IMG/VR virus record: IMGVR_UViG_2802429245_000013
Length of the DNA stretch: 45,041 bases
Source: a virus
Taxonomy: Duplodnaviria > Heunggongvirae > Uroviricota > Caudoviricetes
Strand: one strand, 5' to 3'
Both the position numbers and the translations under genes were made by a program. Position 1 is the first letter of the stretch. Each line of letters opens with the position of its first letter. The notes below the pieces were generated by a model. That model saw only the letters and a list, made by a program, of their open reading frames with translations, did not search any database and had not been told where the DNA came from. Shown here one piece after another: positions 3,660-44,616 of this stretch.

Positions 3660-3788
3660 CCGAACAATGTCGGGAGGGCGACGAATACAACACCCGAAAG
3701 GGGAATAAGTCCGCGGCCTCACTGAGCCGTTTCGAACCTCCCGGCTCCACTCCGATAGTGGAAATTCGAAAAAATCAGTGAGGTCGTT

Positions 3789-22523: not shown

Positions 22524-23433
22524 CCGGCACGCTGCCAGAGACTCGACTTTCGAATACGGAATCATTTGTCACCCCCATTGATATGCAGGGTGTCTTCTTC
22601 CTGTATTTTTCGTGAAGGATTTTTACTGCAGCGTTGTTCCAGGTGACCTGATGGTGAATGCGTTTATGGCTGGCACCCATCAGTGAGATTTTTACGCACG
22701 ACGGCGCATACATGACGGAGTAAAAACTTTTAACGTAGGTTCCGGAATCCAGATACAGCTCGGTCATTCCGCCGCTGTTTTTCTGCGTCTGTTTCTGCCC
22801 TAACTGGACAGCACCGATCGTCATAAACAATTCACCACGGCGACCGAGATTCGTGTACGTATTCACATCCTCGTTAATGCGCCCCATGAATGAGAACGGT
22901 CGCTCGACCGAACAGATAAAGCTGTTCATTGCCTTGCGTTTCACCCATGAAGCATGGCCGCCATTGTCACCAAGAAAATCCCCGCCCTGCGACATAGCGA
23001 TGGAAAGAGCAGGTATTGATTCGTAATACGCCAGCATTTCAGAAAGGATCGCATCCAGTTTCCTTATCGGAAAATAGGCCTGGTCATAGTTGCGATCCAC
23101 CCGAAACTGAAACTCGTGATAATCATCATCGAGCTGAATGAAGTATTTACACCCGACCTTTTTTGCCAGGTCAAAACTGGCATTACGGGCGTAAAAAATT
23201 GAGCGACGATCACCGAAATTATCGGCTTCGTCAAAACGACTGGCGATATCGGCTTTGGAAAACACCAGCACCTGTTCACCAAATTCTGCTATGTACTGAT
23301 GCCGGGTTTTATCTTCATCATCAACGACGATAAAAATTTTCCCGGTATAGCCAGCACGACGCAAAGTCCGGTAAGTCAGAACTTTGTCCGGTCGCCCGTG
23401 AGTCAGAATAAAGGCGCAAAAATCATCACGCAT
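22501..23433 (-). CDS. Unknown enzyme-like protein, about 310 aa, possible GT-A-fold DxD-type transferase
   Basis: ORF 22501..23451 trimmed to ATG at 23433 with RBS GGGAGG; strand-DxD-like YFIQLDDDYHEF and N-terminal CAFILTHGRP...KIFIVVDDED suggest a Rossmann-like nucleotide-dependent transferase; start overlaps ParB-like stop by 8 nt. Confidence 0.35.
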   Translation of the reverse strand: MRDDFCAFILTHGRPDKVLTYRTLRRAGYTGKIFIVVDDEDKTRHQYIAEFGEQVLVFSKADIASRFDEADNFGDRRSIFYARNASFDLAKKVGCKYFIQLDDDYHEFQFRVDRNYDQAYFPIRKLDAILSEMLAYYESIPALSIAMSQGGDFLGDNGGHASWVKRKAMNSFICSVERPFSFMGRINEDVNTYTNLGRRGELFMTIGAVQLGQKQTQKNSGGMTELYLDSGTYVKSFYSVMYAPSCVKISLMGASHKRIHHQVTWNNAAVKILHEKYRKKTPCISMGVTNDSVFESRVSGSVPDDCTTNS

Positions 23434-24214
23434 ATTCCTCCTCCCCGCCATGCATGATCTCCACCATGCACTGCGTCATCCGGACAAAACCATTTTCGAT
23501 GGCTTGCTGATAATCAATGATCACCAGCGCCGACTCTTCGAAAAGCGCCTGAACTTCAGCGGGCGCATGGGCGTAATAGTCCGCAATTCTGCTGAAATTA
23601 AACACTGTGTGGCGTTCTGCCGCACACAGGAGGAATTTTTCGATATCAGGATCAAGGGACGCCGAACGTATCCGGCTGACCAGCTCCTGAGTTTTCGTAT
23701 CGTCGTACAGTTCGCCGATATCCGGTTTATCGCCTGACGGCTCATAAACAGGTGTATCAATTTTCGTCGTGTACTGCTCCTCCTCATTTCCGGTACCTGG
23801 CAAAACATCCGTCAACAGTTCATCAATTTCTGTTGGGCTGAATCCTGTCAGGGAGATATCAAAATCAGCATTGATTAGCTCCGACAGTTCCACCCGTAAC
23901 AGTTCTTCATCCCAGCCAGCGTTGAGCGGCAGGCGATTATCTGCCAGGCGGTACGCCTTTTTCTGATCATCCGTCAGGCCAGACAGAACAATGACCGGAA
24001 CCGAATCCATTTTGAGCATTTCAGCCGCCATCACGCGACCGTGACCAGCAATAATTTCGCCCTTTTCGTCAATCAGCACCGGATTGGTCCAGCCGAATTG
24101 CTTAATGCTTTCTACCAGTTGTGCCACCTGCTCAGGGCTGTGTGTCCTGGCGTTGTGCGCATACGGAGACAGTTTTTGCAACGGGCGATAGACGATCTTT
24201 AATTTCTCGCTCAT
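23426..24214 (-). CDS. ParB N-terminal domain (ParB/sulfiredoxin-like) protein, 262 aa
   Basis: ORF translation has ParB-N hallmark ...NPVLIDEKGEIIAGHGRVMAA... near N-terminus. Confidence 0.6.
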   Translation of the reverse strand: MSEKLKIVYRPLQKLSPYAHNARTHSPEQVAQLVESIKQFGWTNPVLIDEKGEIIAGHGRVMAAEMLKMDSVPVIVLSGLTDDQKKAYRLADNRLPLNAGWDEELLRVELSELINADFDISLTGFSPTEIDELLTDVLPGTGNEEEQYTTKIDTPVYEPSGDKPDIGELYDDTKTQELVSRIRSASLDPDIEKFLLCAAERHTVFNFSRIADYYAHAPAEVQALFEESALVIIDYQQAIENGFVRMTQCMVEIMHGGEEEYA

Positions 24215-25130: not shown

Positions 25131-25406
25131 TCACCTCCGGAATGAAAGGATTTTTGAAACGTTCCCGCGTGCACGTATCACCAGCACGCAGAACAGCAGA
25201 TTAAGCCCCACCGCCAGCCAGTTCGCCGCTAACGGGCGACCGCACAGATAGCTGAGGGGTGCAAAGGCATACAGCAGCATCAGCAGCCAGGCCAGCCATG
25301 ACATCAGCGGTTTGTGTCTGGAATCACGGCGACGATAAAAAAAGAGCGTCAGCACGATAACCGTGCATAACGCCACATTCAGCAATCCGGAAAGGTTACT
25401 TAACAT
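25131..25406 (-). CDS. Small membrane protein (holin/antiholin-like), about 91 aa
   Basis: ORF 25131..25460 trimmed to Met with RBS GGAGG; two to three hydrophobic segments; stop overlaps endolysin start. Confidence 0.45.
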   Translation of the reverse strand: MLSNLSGLLNVALCTVIVLTLFFYRRRDSRHKPLMSWLAWLLMLLYAFAPLSYLCGRPLAANWLAVGLNLLFCVLVIRARGNVSKILSFRR

Positions 25407-25788
25407 TGCCGCCTCCTCCGCCCCGCAGGCGGGAGAACAGGCCGGACACCAGCGATGCAATATCCTGCTGGTGGATGAACGAGAGAATCTTCACCGACAC
25501 CACTGACACCAGTACTGCACACAATGCGTCGACAGGCGCGCTGTCAAATCCTGTGTGCTTTACCAGCCAGGCAGCCAGAACCTCTGCGCCCAGCACGCCA
25601 ATAATGAACGACACCAGAAAATGCGCCGCCACACGCCAGGCTGAAAGCGCCTGCGGCATCGTTGCCACAAATAACGCCCCGGCGAACGCACCAAACACAA
25701 TCCCGAAATCCGTTCCGGTAAACAGCCCGTACACCGTCGCCCCACCGAGCGCCGCAGCCGTGCCGGAACCGGATAAGGGTTCAGACAT
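25396..25788 (-). CDS. Holin-like multi-TM protein, about 131 aa
   Basis: ORF 25396..25860 trimmed to Met with RBS AGGAG; Gly/Ala-rich transmembrane segments; first gene of lysis cassette. Confidence 0.5.
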   Translation of the reverse strand: MSEPLSGSGTAAALGGATVYGLFTGTDFGIVFGAFAGALFVATMPQALSAWRVAAHFLVSFIIGVLGAEVLAAWLVKHTGFDSAPVDALCAVLVSVVSVKILSFIHQQDIASLVSGLFSRLRGGGGGNVK

Positions 25789-25802
25789 ACTTTTTTCTCC
25801 TG

Positions 25803-25829
25803 TAAATAAAAAAGGGCCACCAGCGGCCC
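25803..25829 (-). terminator. Hairpin plus U-tract immediately upstream of holin RBS (minus strand)
   Basis: Stem GGGCC/GGCCC with 6-nt loop; on minus strand followed by TTTTTTATTT. Confidence 0.45.
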
Positions 25830-26107
25830 GTAAAAAACACCCCGTCAAAAGCACCGGCATCCGCAGATGCCCTTTGCGTGGCGTTATTTGATGCGCGCCA
25901 GATGTGGCGCAAAGAAATGAAATAAGACTTATCGGAAATTAAGGTTAATTTGAGGATTTAAACCACTTCTGAAGCTTAGTAGTATGAACATGTCCCCGGA
26001 AGGGGGCCAATACTTATTATTCTTCATGGACTTTGTCCCGCGGTCTTAATCCGACGACCGCGCTACTTTTCACCCTCTCGCAAATTGCTATCCAAAGGAC
26101 GTTGTCC

Positions 26108-26140
26108 CACGAGTATTCCTGGATGCTCGTGTCTTTTTTC
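26108..26140 (+). terminator. Plus-strand terminator-like hairpin (CACGAG...CTCGTG then TCTTTTTTC)
   Basis: Read from sequence; convergent with minus-strand terminator 20 nt away. Confidence 0.35.
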
Positions 26141-26154
26141 GTCCTGAGAAAGGA

Positions 26155-26180
26155 ATAAAAAAAACCGCCAGATATGGCGG
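26155..26180 (-). terminator. Rho-independent terminator downstream of the tRNA pair (minus strand)
   Basis: Hairpin CCGCCAGATATGGCGG; on minus strand followed by TTTTTTTT. Confidence 0.55.
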
Positions 26181-26546
26181 TTGGTCAATGCAAGGGATGA
26201 ATTTTTTTAATTGTTATTAAACCGAGGCGTCGGGTGCCTCCCGAAGTATTCCGTGCTGTATGGATACTGTGGTTTCCCGCTAAACCGACTCTTTAAACCA
26301 CCCTCGCACTGAGGTGCGCCTCTTTGGTGCGATTTACAACACCAGAATGATGCATCACCGACCCTGCCAGGAAATACAAAATCTCCACCGATAATGCACC
26401 ATTCTGCTGTCGTAAAAAAATCAGCACTGAGGCTACACCTGGCCTCAAATCATAGCCAGAGAACAGAATGCTTTTTCAAAACAACCTGCTCCCACGTAAT
26501 AAAAAATACGCCAGTGCCGCAATACAATAAGGCTTGTTTCAAATGC

Positions 26547-26621
<75 letters not shown>

Positions 26622-26624
26622 ATA

Positions 26625-26700
<76 letters not shown>

Positions 26701-26937
26701 ATTGGTTCTTCAGGGGAGCGATATCACCGAGCAAAGAAGAGTTCCCCCCTCAGAACCGTTTTCGATGATACGATTTAATATTCCAATCGCAACAACACTT
26801 TACGTCAAGTTATGTAAATTAATTTATATGTTTTTATTTTATGTGAATAATTCACTTTCATTTAAAATATACATGACAATATATAAACAAATTTATTTTG
26901 AAGGCGATTATTAAATGTCGTTTCTTATATCACACCA

Positions 26938-26966
26938 TAGAAACAACAAAACCCGCTCGATGGCGG
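26938..26966 (-). terminator. tR-prime-like terminator about 100 nt downstream of Q-like gene
   Basis: Hairpin CCCGCTCGATGGCGGG; on minus strand followed by TTTTGTTGTT. Confidence 0.5.
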
Positions 26967-27066
26967 GTTCTATTAAAGTTCAATTGCGCTTGGTTCGCCT
27001 CGCGATACAGCTTTGCGAAGCATAGCTGAATTGAAGCAGTTTATTGGCAAAAATGCAATAACTTTT

Positions 27067-27522
27067 TTATTGGCTTTCTCCGCATAACGCCAATTTCATT
27101 GGTATATACAGAATGTGTTCAGCAACACCCAACCATGCATCAATGCGATTTCTGCAAGTTTTCAAGCTCCAGCCAGGGCGATACTTATTTAACTGTTGTG
27201 CCATTTTCAGCTTACTCATCCCCCGCCCTTCATATCTTTGTCGGAGGATAAAAATCAATCCAGGATGCTCTGCCATCACTTCACTAATTACCCGGTCAAT
27301 ACATAACGCCTCGGCATCAGTGCAATGGGACAGCCAGCTTTTTTGCTTACTGTCGATCATCTCACGCAAAAATGCTTCCAGCTCTGGCTTCTCTATTCCC
27401 GCTTTTTTCATTCTGCGCAGAGCTTCATTGATGGCTGTTTTCGTCAATTTTTTGGATGCCAGCAACTGGTTGAACATATTCCCCGTCTTACCGCCACCAA
27501 TATACGACCAGCGCCCCCACAT
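27067..27522 (-). CDS. Late-gene antiterminator Q-like protein, about 151 aa
   Basis: Position (last early gene before late terminator and lysis genes); ORF 27067..27729 trimmed because its 5-prime part overlaps the upstream gene; assignment is positional plus weak sequence impression. Confidence 0.45.
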   Translation of the reverse strand: MWGRWSYIGGGKTGNMFNQLLASKKLTKTAINEALRRMKKAGIEKPELEAFLREMIDSKQKSWLSHCTDAEALCIDRVISEVMAEHPGLIFILRQRYEGRGMSKLKMAQQLNKYRPGWSLKTCRNRIDAWLGVAEHILYIPMKLALCGESQ

Positions 27523-27605
27523 ACGCAGTTTTCCCTGAATCCAGACACTTTCCAGCGTGGTGAGACGAAGGTGTTCTCCGCTTTTTCCTGTATTCGTTGG
27601 GTAAA

Positions 27606-27896
27606 TCACAAATATCCCTCCTTTCTCCAGATTTCTTGTGTGCGAAAAACACCTTCTGCATGCATCAGGCGTAATTCTTCTTTGGTGTAATCGCTGGTTT
27701 TTACCCGCCCGTCGATTAAATCGTGGCACGAGCTACAGGCAATCGCGGCCTGCATATCGTGTGGCTTTATCGCTGTTCCGCACGTTCCCGCCAGTCGGTA
27801 ATGCGCCAGCACAGACGTTTCGGGATTGTGATTGCAGTAGCCAGGAATTCTGACCTGGCACATCTGGCCCCGCGCCGCTTTACGTAAATCCACCAT
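27606..27896 (-). CDS. YbcO-like Cys-rich nin-region protein, 96 aa
   Basis: ORF track; Cys pattern C..C....C...CSSCH; nin-region position upstream of Q. Confidence 0.5.
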   Translation of the reverse strand: MVDLRKAARGQMCQVRIPGYCNHNPETSVLAHYRLAGTCGTAIKPHDMQAAIACSSCHDLIDGRVKTSDYTKEELRLMHAEGVFRTQEIWRKEGYL

Positions 27897-29008: not shown

Positions 29009-29164
29009 TTACTCCTCAGGTTCGTAAGCTGTGAAGACAGCGACCTCCGTCTGGCCGGTTCGGATTCGTACCTCGCAGAGGTCTTTCCTCGTTACCAGTG
29101 CCGTCACTATGACGGTTAAACAGATGACGATCAAGGCGATTAACATCGCCTTTTGCTGCTTCAT
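29009..29164 (-). CDS. hok: Hok/Gef family type I toxin (HokD/RelF-like), 51 aa
   Basis: Translation MKQQKAMLIALIVICLTVIVTALVTRKDLCEVRIRTGQTEVAVFTAYEPEE is a canonical Hok-family sequence (single TM, conserved C-terminal periplasmic part). Confidence 0.85.
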   Translation of the reverse strand: MKQQKAMLIALIVICLTVIVTALVTRKDLCEVRIRTGQTEVAVFTAYEPEE

Positions 29165-29222
29165 AGCCTGCTTCTCCTTGCCTTTCGGCACGCAAGAGGC
29201 TAATCTTCAGTTGTCGAGACAT
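29016..29222 (-). CDS. mok: Mok-like overlapping reading frame (translation coupled to hok)
   Basis: ORF 29016..29312 in a different frame overlapping hok almost completely and ending 7 nt from hok stop, as in hok/mok/sok loci; start uncertain. Confidence 0.4.
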   Translation of the reverse strand: MSRQLKISLLRAERQGEAGYEAAKGDVNRLDRHLFNRHSDGTGNEERPLRGTNPNRPDGGRCLHSLRT

Positions 29223-29435
29223 AAGACTGGCCTCACTTCGATTTATAGTCGGGTGGGGCTTTTCTCTATCTGCCTTTTGGTGTTCATGCCCGAGGCAGAT
29301 AGCCTCAAGCACCCGCAGTAATTCTACTTAACTCTCCTTTTCCCGCAAACCGTTTTTATCCCCATCGGCAAATCGAATACACAACCAGCGCCACCGCCAG
29401 TGCAATTCCTACCGTTGTGAATGCTTCAGGCCAGG

Positions 29436-42501: not shown

Positions 42502-42696
42502 ATGCGGTATGAAAAAGTCAAACCATGTCCGTTTTGTGGTTGTCCATCAGTAACGGTGAAAGCCATTTCAGGATATTACCGCGCAAAGTGTAACGGATGC
42601 GAATCCCGAACCGGTTATGGTGGAAGTGAAAAAGAAGCACTCGAAAGATGGAATAAACGAACCACTGGAAATAATAATGGAGGTGTTCATGTATAA
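42502..42696 (+). CDS. ralR: RalR (Lar) restriction-alleviation protein / type I toxin, 64 aa
   Basis: Translation MRYEKVKPCPFCGCPSVTVKAISGYYRAKCNGCESRTGYGGSEKEALERWNKRTTGNNNGGVHV recognised as RalR. Confidence 0.8.
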   Translation: MRYEKVKPCPFCGCPSVTVKAISGYYRAKCNGCESRTGYGGSEKEALERWNKRTTGNNNGGVHV

Positions 42697-42877
42697 AATT
42701 ACCGCCACTATTGAAAAGGAAGGTGGCACTCCTACTAACTGGACAAGATATTCAAAATCTAAACTAACGAAATCAGAATGCGAAAAAATGCTCTCAGGGA
42801 AAAAAGAAGCAGGCGTTTCCAGAGAGCAGAAAGCAAAACTGATAAATTTTAATTGCGAGAAACTTCTGTCATCGTGA
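42689..42877 (+). CDS. ydaC: YdaC-like protein, 62 aa
   Basis: ORF 42617..42877 trimmed to MYKITATIEKEGGTPTNWTRYSK... with RBS GGAGG 5 nt upstream; overlaps ralR end. Confidence 0.55.
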   Translation: MYKITATIEKEGGTPTNWTRYSKSKLTKSECEKMLSGKKEAGVSREQKAKLINFNCEKLLSS

Positions 42878-44354: not shown

Positions 44355-44472
44355 AAAAAAGACCGGAATACAGAAATTCGAGTAAATTTCGGGGGATTTC
44401 GGGGAGATGCTTGCAACTAATTGATTTTAAATACAATTAAAAAGAGACCGAATACGATTCCTGTATTCGGTC
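44355..44472. repeat. att-region repeats: three copies of GACCGAATAC(A/G) (one inverted, forming a 10-bp-stem palindrome) plus tandem TTTCGGGG(G/A)
   Basis: 44361-44373 gaccggaatacag; 44446-44472 gaccgaatacgattcctgtattcggtc; 44386-44406 atttcgggggatttcggggag. Confidence 0.4.
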
Positions 44473-44616
44473 CAGGGAAATGGCTCTTGGGAGAGAGCCG
44501 TGCGCTAAAAGTTGGCATTAATGCAGGCTTAGTTGCCTTGCCTTTTAAGAATAGATGACGACGCCAGGTTTTCCAGTCCGCGCGTAAAGTGGTCAGAAAA
44601 AAAGCGCGTTTATCAT

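Follow-up and report, generated by a model that had tools for sequence, protein, structure and literature searches.

Between the tRNA genes and the holin gene of a lambdoid prophage lies a segment that is probably a non-coding, modular leader of the late operon, and the two terminators that face each other within it probably mark where two convergent non-coding transcription units end. This reading, drawn from sequence comparison, concerns positions 25830-26546 (the segment) of IMG/VR record IMGVR_UViG_2802429245_000013, a virus of the Caudoviricetes. The whole stretch of 45,041 nt is called the window, and its late genes lie on the minus strand. The original prediction had described the segment as free of open reading frames (ORFs) of 60 aa or more, with a plus-strand terminator-like hairpin (26108-26140) facing a strong minus-strand terminator (26155-26180) and several further hairpins. 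It had suggested a small RNA, a very small protein gene, or the scar of lost or exchangeable cargo. An ORF list with a 20-aa minimum bears out the first point: no internal ORF on either strand reaches 60 aa, the longest being 54 aa (26394-26558, plus) and 51 aa (26293-26448, minus). The left edge is touched only by an in-frame upstream extension of the holin ORF (25396-25860, minus) and by a shadow ORF (25406-25891, plus). A consensus scan placed the two facing terminators at the same coordinates, and added minus-strand terminator-like sites at 26448-26427, 25871-25856 and 25829-25814. It found ten such sites in 25300-27800, against 2.7 +/- 1.6 in shuffled sequence, so the observation is real and beyond chance. 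Since the late genes are on the minus strand, the strong minus-strand terminator stands in the sense of late transcription, and the plus-strand terminator is antisense to it. Comparative evidence speaks for the small-RNA suggestion, with two apparent candidates, a structured tRNA trailer on the minus strand and a cassette on the plus strand; exchangeable cargo was found at a single point only.

On the minus strand, comparison shows three conserved, strand-specific domains (D1 to D3; Table 1) in what would be a trailer RNA of the tRNA operon ending at the terminator t2. The predicted trailer begins at 26546, one base after tRNA-Gly, and reaches the terminator-like t1 at 26414 (~130 nt) and t2 at 26155 (~390 nt). 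Sliding-window consensus folding of both strands reveals a strand asymmetry downstream of tRNA-Gly. The minimum free energy (MFE) of the 397-nt minus-strand RNA is -145.8 kcal/mol (z-score, z, -6.25), compared with -105.5 kcal/mol (z -2.97) for the plus strand of the same DNA. RNAalifold gave 93 consensus pairs from 40 distinct variants, and 99.4% of the 3715 cells are paired, against 40-51% in controls with the partners slid by 1-3 columns. Nine pairs (54 cells) have changed on both sides, and none of 500 shuffles attains the observed paired percentage or covariation score. This conserved, strand-specific fold is the outcome of the structure and covariation analysis that had been proposed as a check. 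On the plus strand the same pairs are 81.7% paired, and 665 cells are G.U against only 9 that are A.C, so the structure is specific to the sense transcript. The t2 stem CCGCC/GGCGG and its T-run are kept in 40/40 variants, with a variable loop; the scan site (26182-26163, minus) has 8 pairs, the tail TTTTTTTT and a fold of -12.4 kcal/mol (z -4.5). One of the more divergent homologues (L008), folded by itself, adopts the same three-domain structure and t2, with z -8.8. D1 was also considered as a tRNA or pseudo-tRNA and rejected: ARAGORN at its default and 80% thresholds returned only the two true tRNAs, with nothing more at 60% than implausible intron-containing calls, and the Rfam tRNA model matched only 26550-26700, with no match on D1.

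On the plus strand, the anatomy of the core, which is the best-conserved part of the whole interval, points to a self-contained small-RNA cassette of ~150-235 bp, with its own predicted sigma-70 promoter, a ~79-nt predicted transcript and a backup terminator. The -35 hexamer TTTAAA is present in 56/57 variants and the spacer is 17 nt long in all 57, while its sequence varies. The -10 element reads TAGTAT in 28 variants, TAATAT in 28 and TAGAAT in one. The MFE fold of an 83-nt RNA has the predicted anatomy of three stem-loops (SL1 to SL3), with z -2.7; a 151-nt form running to the second terminator has z -3.9. Across 39 variants, 94.8% of cells in the cassette RNA are paired, compared with 41-53% in slid controls. 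Two-sided changes affect four pairs (41 cells), a result equalled by 0/500 shuffles, and compensatory changes occur in SL1 and SL3. A covariance model of the candidate small RNA has just one match in the window (111.6 bits).

Termination of the predicted small RNA appears to be doubly provided for. A T-rich SL3 tail is kept in 36/39 variants, with 6-8 T in variants other than the window's. The backup hairpin (scan site 26108-26131, plus; 10 pairs; tail TCTTTTTTCG; -12.7 kcal/mol, z -3.9), followed by UCUUUUUU, stands 45 nt after SL3, and its stem shows the compensatory variants CACGAG/CUCGUG, CACGGAC/GUCCGUG and CACGGG/CCCGUG. A second plus-strand terminator lies at most 115 nt from SL3 in 105 of the 119 core-bearing loci, and a strong SL3 tail, a second terminator or both are found in 116/119. 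The backup terminator of the cassette and t2 stand back to back, 15 nt apart (26141 and 26155), and from the predicted unit as a whole (25957-26141, plus) it is ~170-350 nt downstream, in the late sense, to the holin start (25788, minus). Loci either have or lack the cassette as a whole, its sharp boundaries lying at ~25922 and ~26074-26157, and it is absent from three locus types (X, Y and Z) that were found by the trailer pattern; being missing as a block is the behaviour of an autonomous insert. As a separate observation, a 45-nt piece comprising SL3 and SL2 (26026-26070) occurs at ~89% identity, alone and without the rest of the core, in O103:H2 Shiga toxin-producing E. coli, in other genomes and in one 420-kb record.

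Table 1. Predicted features and mosaic blocks of the interval from the tRNA genes to the holin gene, in the direction of late transcription (positions in the window)
Feature	Positions	Strand	Details
tRNA-Thr(UGU)	26625-26700	-	ARAGORN; Rfam tRNA
tRNA-Gly(UCC)	26547-26621	-	ARAGORN; Rfam tRNA
Candidate structured trailer RNA of the tRNA operon	26155-26546	-	late-sense; consensus fold
D1	26519-26422	-	four-way junction with 8-bp closing stem CGGCACUG/CAGUGCUG, then A+U7 at 26421-26414 = terminator-like t1
D2	26416-26333	-	long irregular hairpin, ~34 bp
D3	26322-26224	-	branched domain, then AU-rich linker
t2, strong intrinsic terminator	26155-26182	-	stem AACCGCCA/UGGCGGUU, loop UAUC, U8; hairpin 26182-26163
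Second (backup) plus-strand terminator	26108-26141	+	CACGAGUAUUCCUGGAUGCUCGUG + UCUUUUUUCG; the plus-strand hairpin of the original prediction
SL3, terminator stem	26039-26062	+	tail CUACUUUUC
SL2	26028-26038	+	GGAC-UUU-GUCC
Single-stranded conserved stretch, U-rich	26008-26027	+	CAAUACUUAUUAUUCUUCAU; 15/20 columns invariant
SL1	25992-26007	+	GUCCCC-GGAA-GGGGGC
Candidate small RNA, ~79 nt	25992-26071	+	starts 7 bases after the -10
Predicted sigma-70 promoter	25923-25985	+	AT-rich upstream part 25923-25956; -35 TTTAAA 25957-25962; 17-nt spacer; -10 TAGTAT 25980-25985
32-aa ORF	26027-25929	-	MKNNKYWPPSGDMFILLSFRSGLNPQINLNFR; late-sense; 5′ part antisense to the candidate small RNA
Empty cargo (moron) slot	25887-25888	.	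blastn breakpoints in many loci
Last pre-holin block	25790-25886	-	hairpin GGCAUCUGCGGAUGCC 25871-25856; terminator t3 GGGCCGCUGGUGGCCC+U6 25829-25808; holin ribosome-binding site AGGAGA; ATG 25788
Mosaic block: tRNAs			
Mosaic block: D1+D2	to ~26333		
Mosaic block: D3+t2	26333-26155		
Mosaic block: plus-strand hairpin	26157-26075		
Mosaic block: core, ~150-190 nt	26074-25888		cassette boundary ~25922
Mosaic block: cargo point	25887/25888		
Mosaic block: pre-holin	25886-25790		

Several observations weigh against two convergent RNA units. All homologues come from Escherichia prophages, and the effective sequence number of the covariance model is 1.55; recent common descent and recombination may account for part of the conservation and of the few compensatory events. 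One alignment of closely related sequences served both to derive the trailer structure and to score it. The cassette promoter agrees with the consensus at 8/12 positions, below the scan threshold of 9/12, and was recognised from its conservation and spacing, unreported by the scan. In the core, wobble counts barely tell the strands apart (94.8% paired on the plus strand, 92.1% on the minus); being indecisive, they leave the strand assignment of the cassette to the promoter and the T-tails. Part of the conservation of the cassette could come from an overlapping 32-aa ORF, which is considered below. RNAduplex comparison of the candidate small RNA with the translation-start regions of the window itself revealed no outlier as a trans target, the best value being -14.8 kcal/mol at a doubtful ORF. 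The late promoter pR′ was not located in the stretch between the antiterminator gene Q and tRNA-Thr. Finally, the SL3 tail is weak in the variant carried by the window (CUACUUUUC). Given that weak tail, and the 116 loci that carry a strong tail, a second terminator or both, the plus-strand terminator of the original prediction is best read as the backup of the cassette.

A rather unlikely alternative is that the segment serves as an insulator only. A battery of terminators, with incidentally structured RNA, would prevent expression of the lysis genes before Q acts; the plus-strand terminator would block stray antisense transcription, and there would be no plus-strand small RNA. This would account for the enrichment of terminator-like sites, for the three to five sense-strand terminators between Q and the holin gene, for the retention of t2 and another sense terminator in relatives that lack the cassette, and for wobble counts that show no clear plus-strand preference in the core. 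It leaves unexplained, however, why the -35 and -10 hexamers are invariant at a fixed 17-nt spacing and sit 7 nt upstream of SL1, why a sense A-run (the T-tail of the plus strand) is conserved, why plus-strand terminators occur in tandem, and why the core is gained and lost as a block.

Absence of conservation among related prophages, together with absence of plus-strand transcription, had been named as grounds for discarding the original prediction, and the segment proved to be conserved. The query for this comparison was 757 nt long (25790-26546, the segment extended to the holin start). It matched in 450/5426 complete Escherichia coli genomes, with coverage of at least 80% in 215/5426 and identity of 78-99.7%; the share of complete E. 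coli genomes with the conserved segment (78-100%) is about 4-5%. Copies that are 98.5-100% identical occur in E. coli M8, JNEC-KY178 and LY180. Homologous loci were gathered by three pattern scans, of IMG/VR viral contigs with a core pattern (114 stretches) and with a domain-2 pattern (115), and of species genomes. Among 185,579 species genomes, the core pattern had one true match beyond E. coli, in Escherichia ruysiae; five other matches were judged to be chance, solely on the unrelated taxa of the metagenome-assembled genomes concerned. The Prokaryotic Genome Annotation Pipeline (PGAP) nearly always annotates nothing in the interval. Two homologues carry coding sequences labelled ‘hypothetical protein’ here (137 aa in L007, 106 aa in L009), and a decayed protein gene was considered on this account and rejected: they align in three frames with stops. 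The homologue ORFs change frame along the alignment, which marks them as not coding.

The interval is a mosaic of blocks that are gained and lost independently, as judged from blastn breakpoints (Table 1). It moves together with both tRNA genes, while its neighbours vary: upstream, a Q of the DUF1133 type, a Q of the lambda type or a DNA methylase; downstream, holins of the lambda-S/essD type or of the Phage_holin_8 type. Two rearranged relatives may be recorded here. In phage SerU-LTIIb (KU052038; L002 3853-5909), the tRNAs, the non-coding segment and the first holin gene are partly duplicated in tandem. In one class of relatives, 426 nt (L079 1703-2128) stand in for 26157-26063 of the window; this stretch holds a fragment resembling the 3′ half of a tRNA, GGGGTTCGAGTCCCC, and two more sense-strand terminators, and SL3 has a strong T-run in that class.

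One point within this mosaic carries protein-coding cargo in other prophages. About 20/124 core-bearing loci have 677 bp extra exactly at the 25887/25888 junction, with two late-sense genes, one for a TerB-like protein of 141 aa (phrog_632, PF05099) and one for a DUF3927 protein of 50 aa (phrog_1470, PF13064). An imperfect direct repeat, GCGCA.ATC..AA.AAC.CCAC, borders the insert on both sides, and the junction in the window reads as a hybrid of the two copies. The comparison with homologous prophages that had been proposed as a check located cargo at this site. Phage phiP27, which has the same lysis cassette and pre-holin block, carries stx2e between its tRNAs and its holin gene, so that the placement of stx or other morons at this position in related phages, as originally claimed, is correct. 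In the ORF list of the window, no protein-coding moron gene lies between the tRNAs and the holin gene. Further details of phiP27 (L177, NC_003356, 2099-4489) are its holin/holin/M15 cassette and, where the window is free of ORFs, genes for tRNA-Ile and tRNA-Arg together with stx2e; a short ORF labelled ‘hypothetical’, on the minus strand from stxB to the holin gene, might mark another antisense element. In SerU-LTIIb, the LT-IIb toxin genes come after the endolysin gene, outside the tRNA-to-holin interval.

It is very unlikely that the whole segment is a decayed, functionless scar, left by cargo or genes that the tRNA-to-holin interval once contained, and conserved only through recent kinship. 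Such a scar would sit well with the TerB and DUF3927 genes of relatives and a direct repeat that could mediate their deletion, with stx2e in the same interval of phiP27, with an element that is limited to Escherichia and has many copies more than 90% identical, and with the scattered ‘hypothetical proteins’ that PGAP and phage annotators place here. These annotated ORFs are, however, not frame-conserved; the cargo-free form is the majority (about 90/124 loci); and the boundaries of the blocks are those of the structural domains. Further, copies down to 78% identity keep 99.4% of the 93 base pairs by one- and two-sided changes, on one strand only. Exchangeable cargo is a fitting description of the 25887/25888 junction, and not of most of the segment, which is conserved with compensatory changes and whose homologous ORFs do not keep their frame.

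The very small protein gene of the original prediction would be the 32-aa ORF on the minus strand of the core, perhaps part of a pair resembling a type I toxin-antitoxin system with the antisense RNA. We consider this unlikely. In 95/123 loci the ORF is uninterrupted and has an unchanged length and stop codon; it begins with ATG or GTG, and its last Arg codon is CGA, AGA, AGG or CGG. Among the six frames it has the lowest ratio of nonsynonymous to synonymous polymorphism (pN/pS), 0.39; the other five range over 0.49-0.98, and with the second-lowest at 0.49 the signal is weak. The geometry would fit such a pair, in that the predicted RNA at 25992-26071 (plus) would cover codons 1-12 and the 5′ untranslated region, both partners being predicted. 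In the remaining 28/123 loci, however, the ORF is frameshifted while the nucleotides downstream are still conserved, and many amino-acid replacements are radical. Its only ribosome-binding motif is a weak GGGA, 8 nt upstream of the ATG and buried in hairpins, and neither inspection by eye nor a consensus scan found a convincing sense promoter between t2 and the ORF. Pfam and PHROG scans assigned the peptide to no family. The peptide has a hydrophobic run of only 6 residues and is thus, unlike most type I toxins, not hydrophobic; together with the lack of a conserved sense promoter, this sets it apart from that toxin class.

The gene order on the minus strand is that of a late operon: a Q-like antiterminator (27609-27070; phrog_753, PF06576/PF06530), tRNA-Thr, tRNA-Gly, the segment, a holin that starts at 25788 (Phage_holin_8; phrog_198, PF16931), a second holin and an M15 endolysin. 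The same order is found in an annotated genome that is 99.7% identical and in other annotated homologues. The two tRNAs score 73.8 and 65.6 bits with the Rfam tRNA model and make up the 5′ portion of the conserved module, whose homology to related prophages starts ~5-15 nt upstream of tRNA-Thr (boundaries 26705-26715). Between Q and tRNA-Thr lie a promoter-like sequence, TTGCGA-16-TATCAT (26765-26792, minus), and a strong terminator-like hairpin (26944-26975, minus; 13 pairs, -18.1 kcal/mol, z -4.5), which could be a candidate tRNA promoter and a candidate tR′ terminator. Upstream of t2, neither eye nor consensus scan found anything convincing as a sense small-RNA promoter.

At the other end of the interval, t3 (25829-25808, minus) is an intrinsic terminator by its hairpin and U-run, directly before the holin ribosome-binding site. 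The pre-holin block that contains it is kept before two unrelated holin types, essD/lambda-S and Phage_holin_8. It occurs in phiP27 at 83-91% identity and also in further phages. The block (25790-25888) also matches Actinobacillus phage vB_Apl-pPE4, at 86% over 99 nt, an unexpected cross-genus match for a non-coding block.

A few observations concern other parts of the window and its nearest relative. That relative (L003, 99.7% identical over the segment) has an anti-CBASS Acb1-family protein, a GREB1-related protein and a truncated ParB/Srx gene annotated downstream of its lysis genes (L003 1-3579); in the window, an ORF at 23426-24214 (minus) encodes a ParB-like protein of 262 aa. Rfam matches at gathering level elsewhere in the window are RalA, the antitoxin RNA of RalR (42695-42873, minus); sok (29159-29314, minus), beside an ORF of the Hok/Gef type; the pair SraC/RyeA and SdsR/RyeB (44435-44579, plus, and 44439-44538, minus); and sRNA-Xcc1 (3669-3753, plus). 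The RyeA/RyeB pair at the end of the window suggests that the prophage abuts the ryeA/ryeB locus.

If the two units are as predicted, a simple course of events can be proposed. In a lysogen, the tRNAs and the trailer would be made, and t1, t2 and t3 would keep transcription from reaching the lysis genes. Once the prophage is induced, RNA polymerase modified by Q would read through all three. The long hairpins of the trailer could plausibly offer processing or stabilising sites for RNase III or RNase E, parting the tRNAs from the late mRNA. The plus-strand RNA would be fully complementary to the leader of the late operon, and read-through or late transcripts could be its targets in cis. In trans, mRNAs of the host or the phage could pair with its single-stranded stretch, CUUAUUAUUCUUCAU being the candidate pairing sequence. 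It may act like other prophage small RNAs, with a trans action such as that of Pas, AgvB and AsxR.

In lambdoid prophages, the interval from Q to the lysis genes carries Shiga toxin and other virulence cargo, and host-regulating small RNAs (PasA/C/D, StxS and the EcOnc RNAs) have been found there in enterohaemorrhagic (EHEC) and enteropathogenic (EPEC) E. coli. The ‘empty’ version of this interval appears to consist of conserved RNA modules, extending the picture to commensal, enterotoxigenic and other lineages. It adds two well-delimited RNA candidates that no annotation pipeline reports. The mapped cargo slot and module boundaries should help in interpreting prophage mosaicism, and multi-terminator insulation as opposed to leaky expression of lysis or toxin genes. 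A bolder claim, which we regard as doubtful, is that both RNAs are new functional ones: a large (~300-390 nt), strand-specific structured RNA class that is linked to phage tRNA genes and does more than terminate transcription, and an inverted ‘RNA moron’. If true, the large RNA would be a processing platform or protective element for phage tRNAs and late mRNA, or a decoy. The small RNA of the moron, alone or with the 32-aa ORF, would then be a cis-antisense safety catch on the lysis cassette as well as a trans-regulator of host genes.

Judged from closely related Escherichia prophages, the two RNA candidates and the cargo slot probably belong to known kinds: prophage small RNAs, tRNA-trailer or leader RNAs, and moron slots. 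The 3′ETS-leuZ RNA of E. coli is ~50 nt long, lies directly 3′ of the last tRNA of its operon and ends at an intrinsic terminator with a U-tail. Like RNAs of this type, the predicted trailer lies directly 3′ of the last tRNA of its operon and ends at the intrinsic terminator of that operon. It differs from 3′ETS-leuZ in its length (~130 or ~390 nt) and its three conserved structured domains, and in being phage-borne, inside a Q-controlled late operon.

A second comparison is with leader transcripts of the late promoter. This promoter, pR′, is constitutive and terminated in lysogens, and Q makes polymerase resistant to terminators (PMC7547250). StxS and the lambda 6S RNA are short sense transcripts from the always-active pR′, stopped at tR′ in lysogens (PMC7547250). 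The trailer resembles them as a predicted sense non-coding RNA in the Q-to-lysis leader, whose 3′ end is a terminator that Q-modified polymerase would override. StxS, however, lies between pR′ and the tRNAs or stx, whereas the trailer follows the tRNAs and far exceeds these transcripts in size and structure. The comparison gave neither an Rfam nor a sequence match.

Known RNA families gave no match to either candidate. In 25790-26546, Rfam 15 reported nothing at the gathering threshold, including STnc100/PasD-like RNAs, AgvB, AsxR, Esr41, tRNA-like elements, GOLLD and ROOL. With E values up to 10 admitted, it returned only weak terminator-type matches at 26153-26226 (minus), to STnc240 (23.6 bits, threshold 55) and STnc100 (14.6 bits, threshold 47). 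The candidate small-RNA sequence, as DNA and as RNA and on both strands, appears in no paper of the literature searched.

The closest analogues of the predicted plus-strand unit, without homology, are PasA and PasC (EcOnc51/52), Northern-validated, Hfq-dependent small RNAs of lambdoid prophages of EPEC and EHEC (PMC8550237 table S6; bioRxiv 10.64898/2026.05.13.724894). They are encoded on the opposite strand, between an esterase gene and the lysis region (bioRxiv 10.64898/2026.05.13.724894), and PasA has a major form of 85 nt and a minor form of 236 nt that ends at a second terminator (PMC8550237 table S6). In the PasA locus of strain E2348/69, the holin gene is the next gene downstream (‘> < >’). 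The predicted unit shares with them its position in the late region of a lambdoid prophage, by the lysis genes and on the strand opposite the late genes, as well as a size of ~80 nt and an intrinsic terminator. The 85 and 236 nt of PasA are comparable to the predicted 79 and ~150 nt. The neighbour of PasA and PasC is a sialate esterase gene, whereas that of the plus-strand unit is the tRNA trailer. An identity with PasA, PasC or PasD of E2348/69 was considered and rejected: blastn-short found only chance-level matches of ~7-14 nt, and the covariance model had no match at the three loci (L124-L126).

The last comparison is with the morons between Q and the holin gene S, namely stx in Stx phages and the TerB and DUF3927 genes in many E. 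coli prophages, which occupy the same interval as the segment. Unlike them, the window carries no protein cargo there. Its candidate small-RNA cassette is moron-like in having its own predicted promoter and terminator and in occurring either whole or not at all; it differs in being non-coding and in its inverted orientation.

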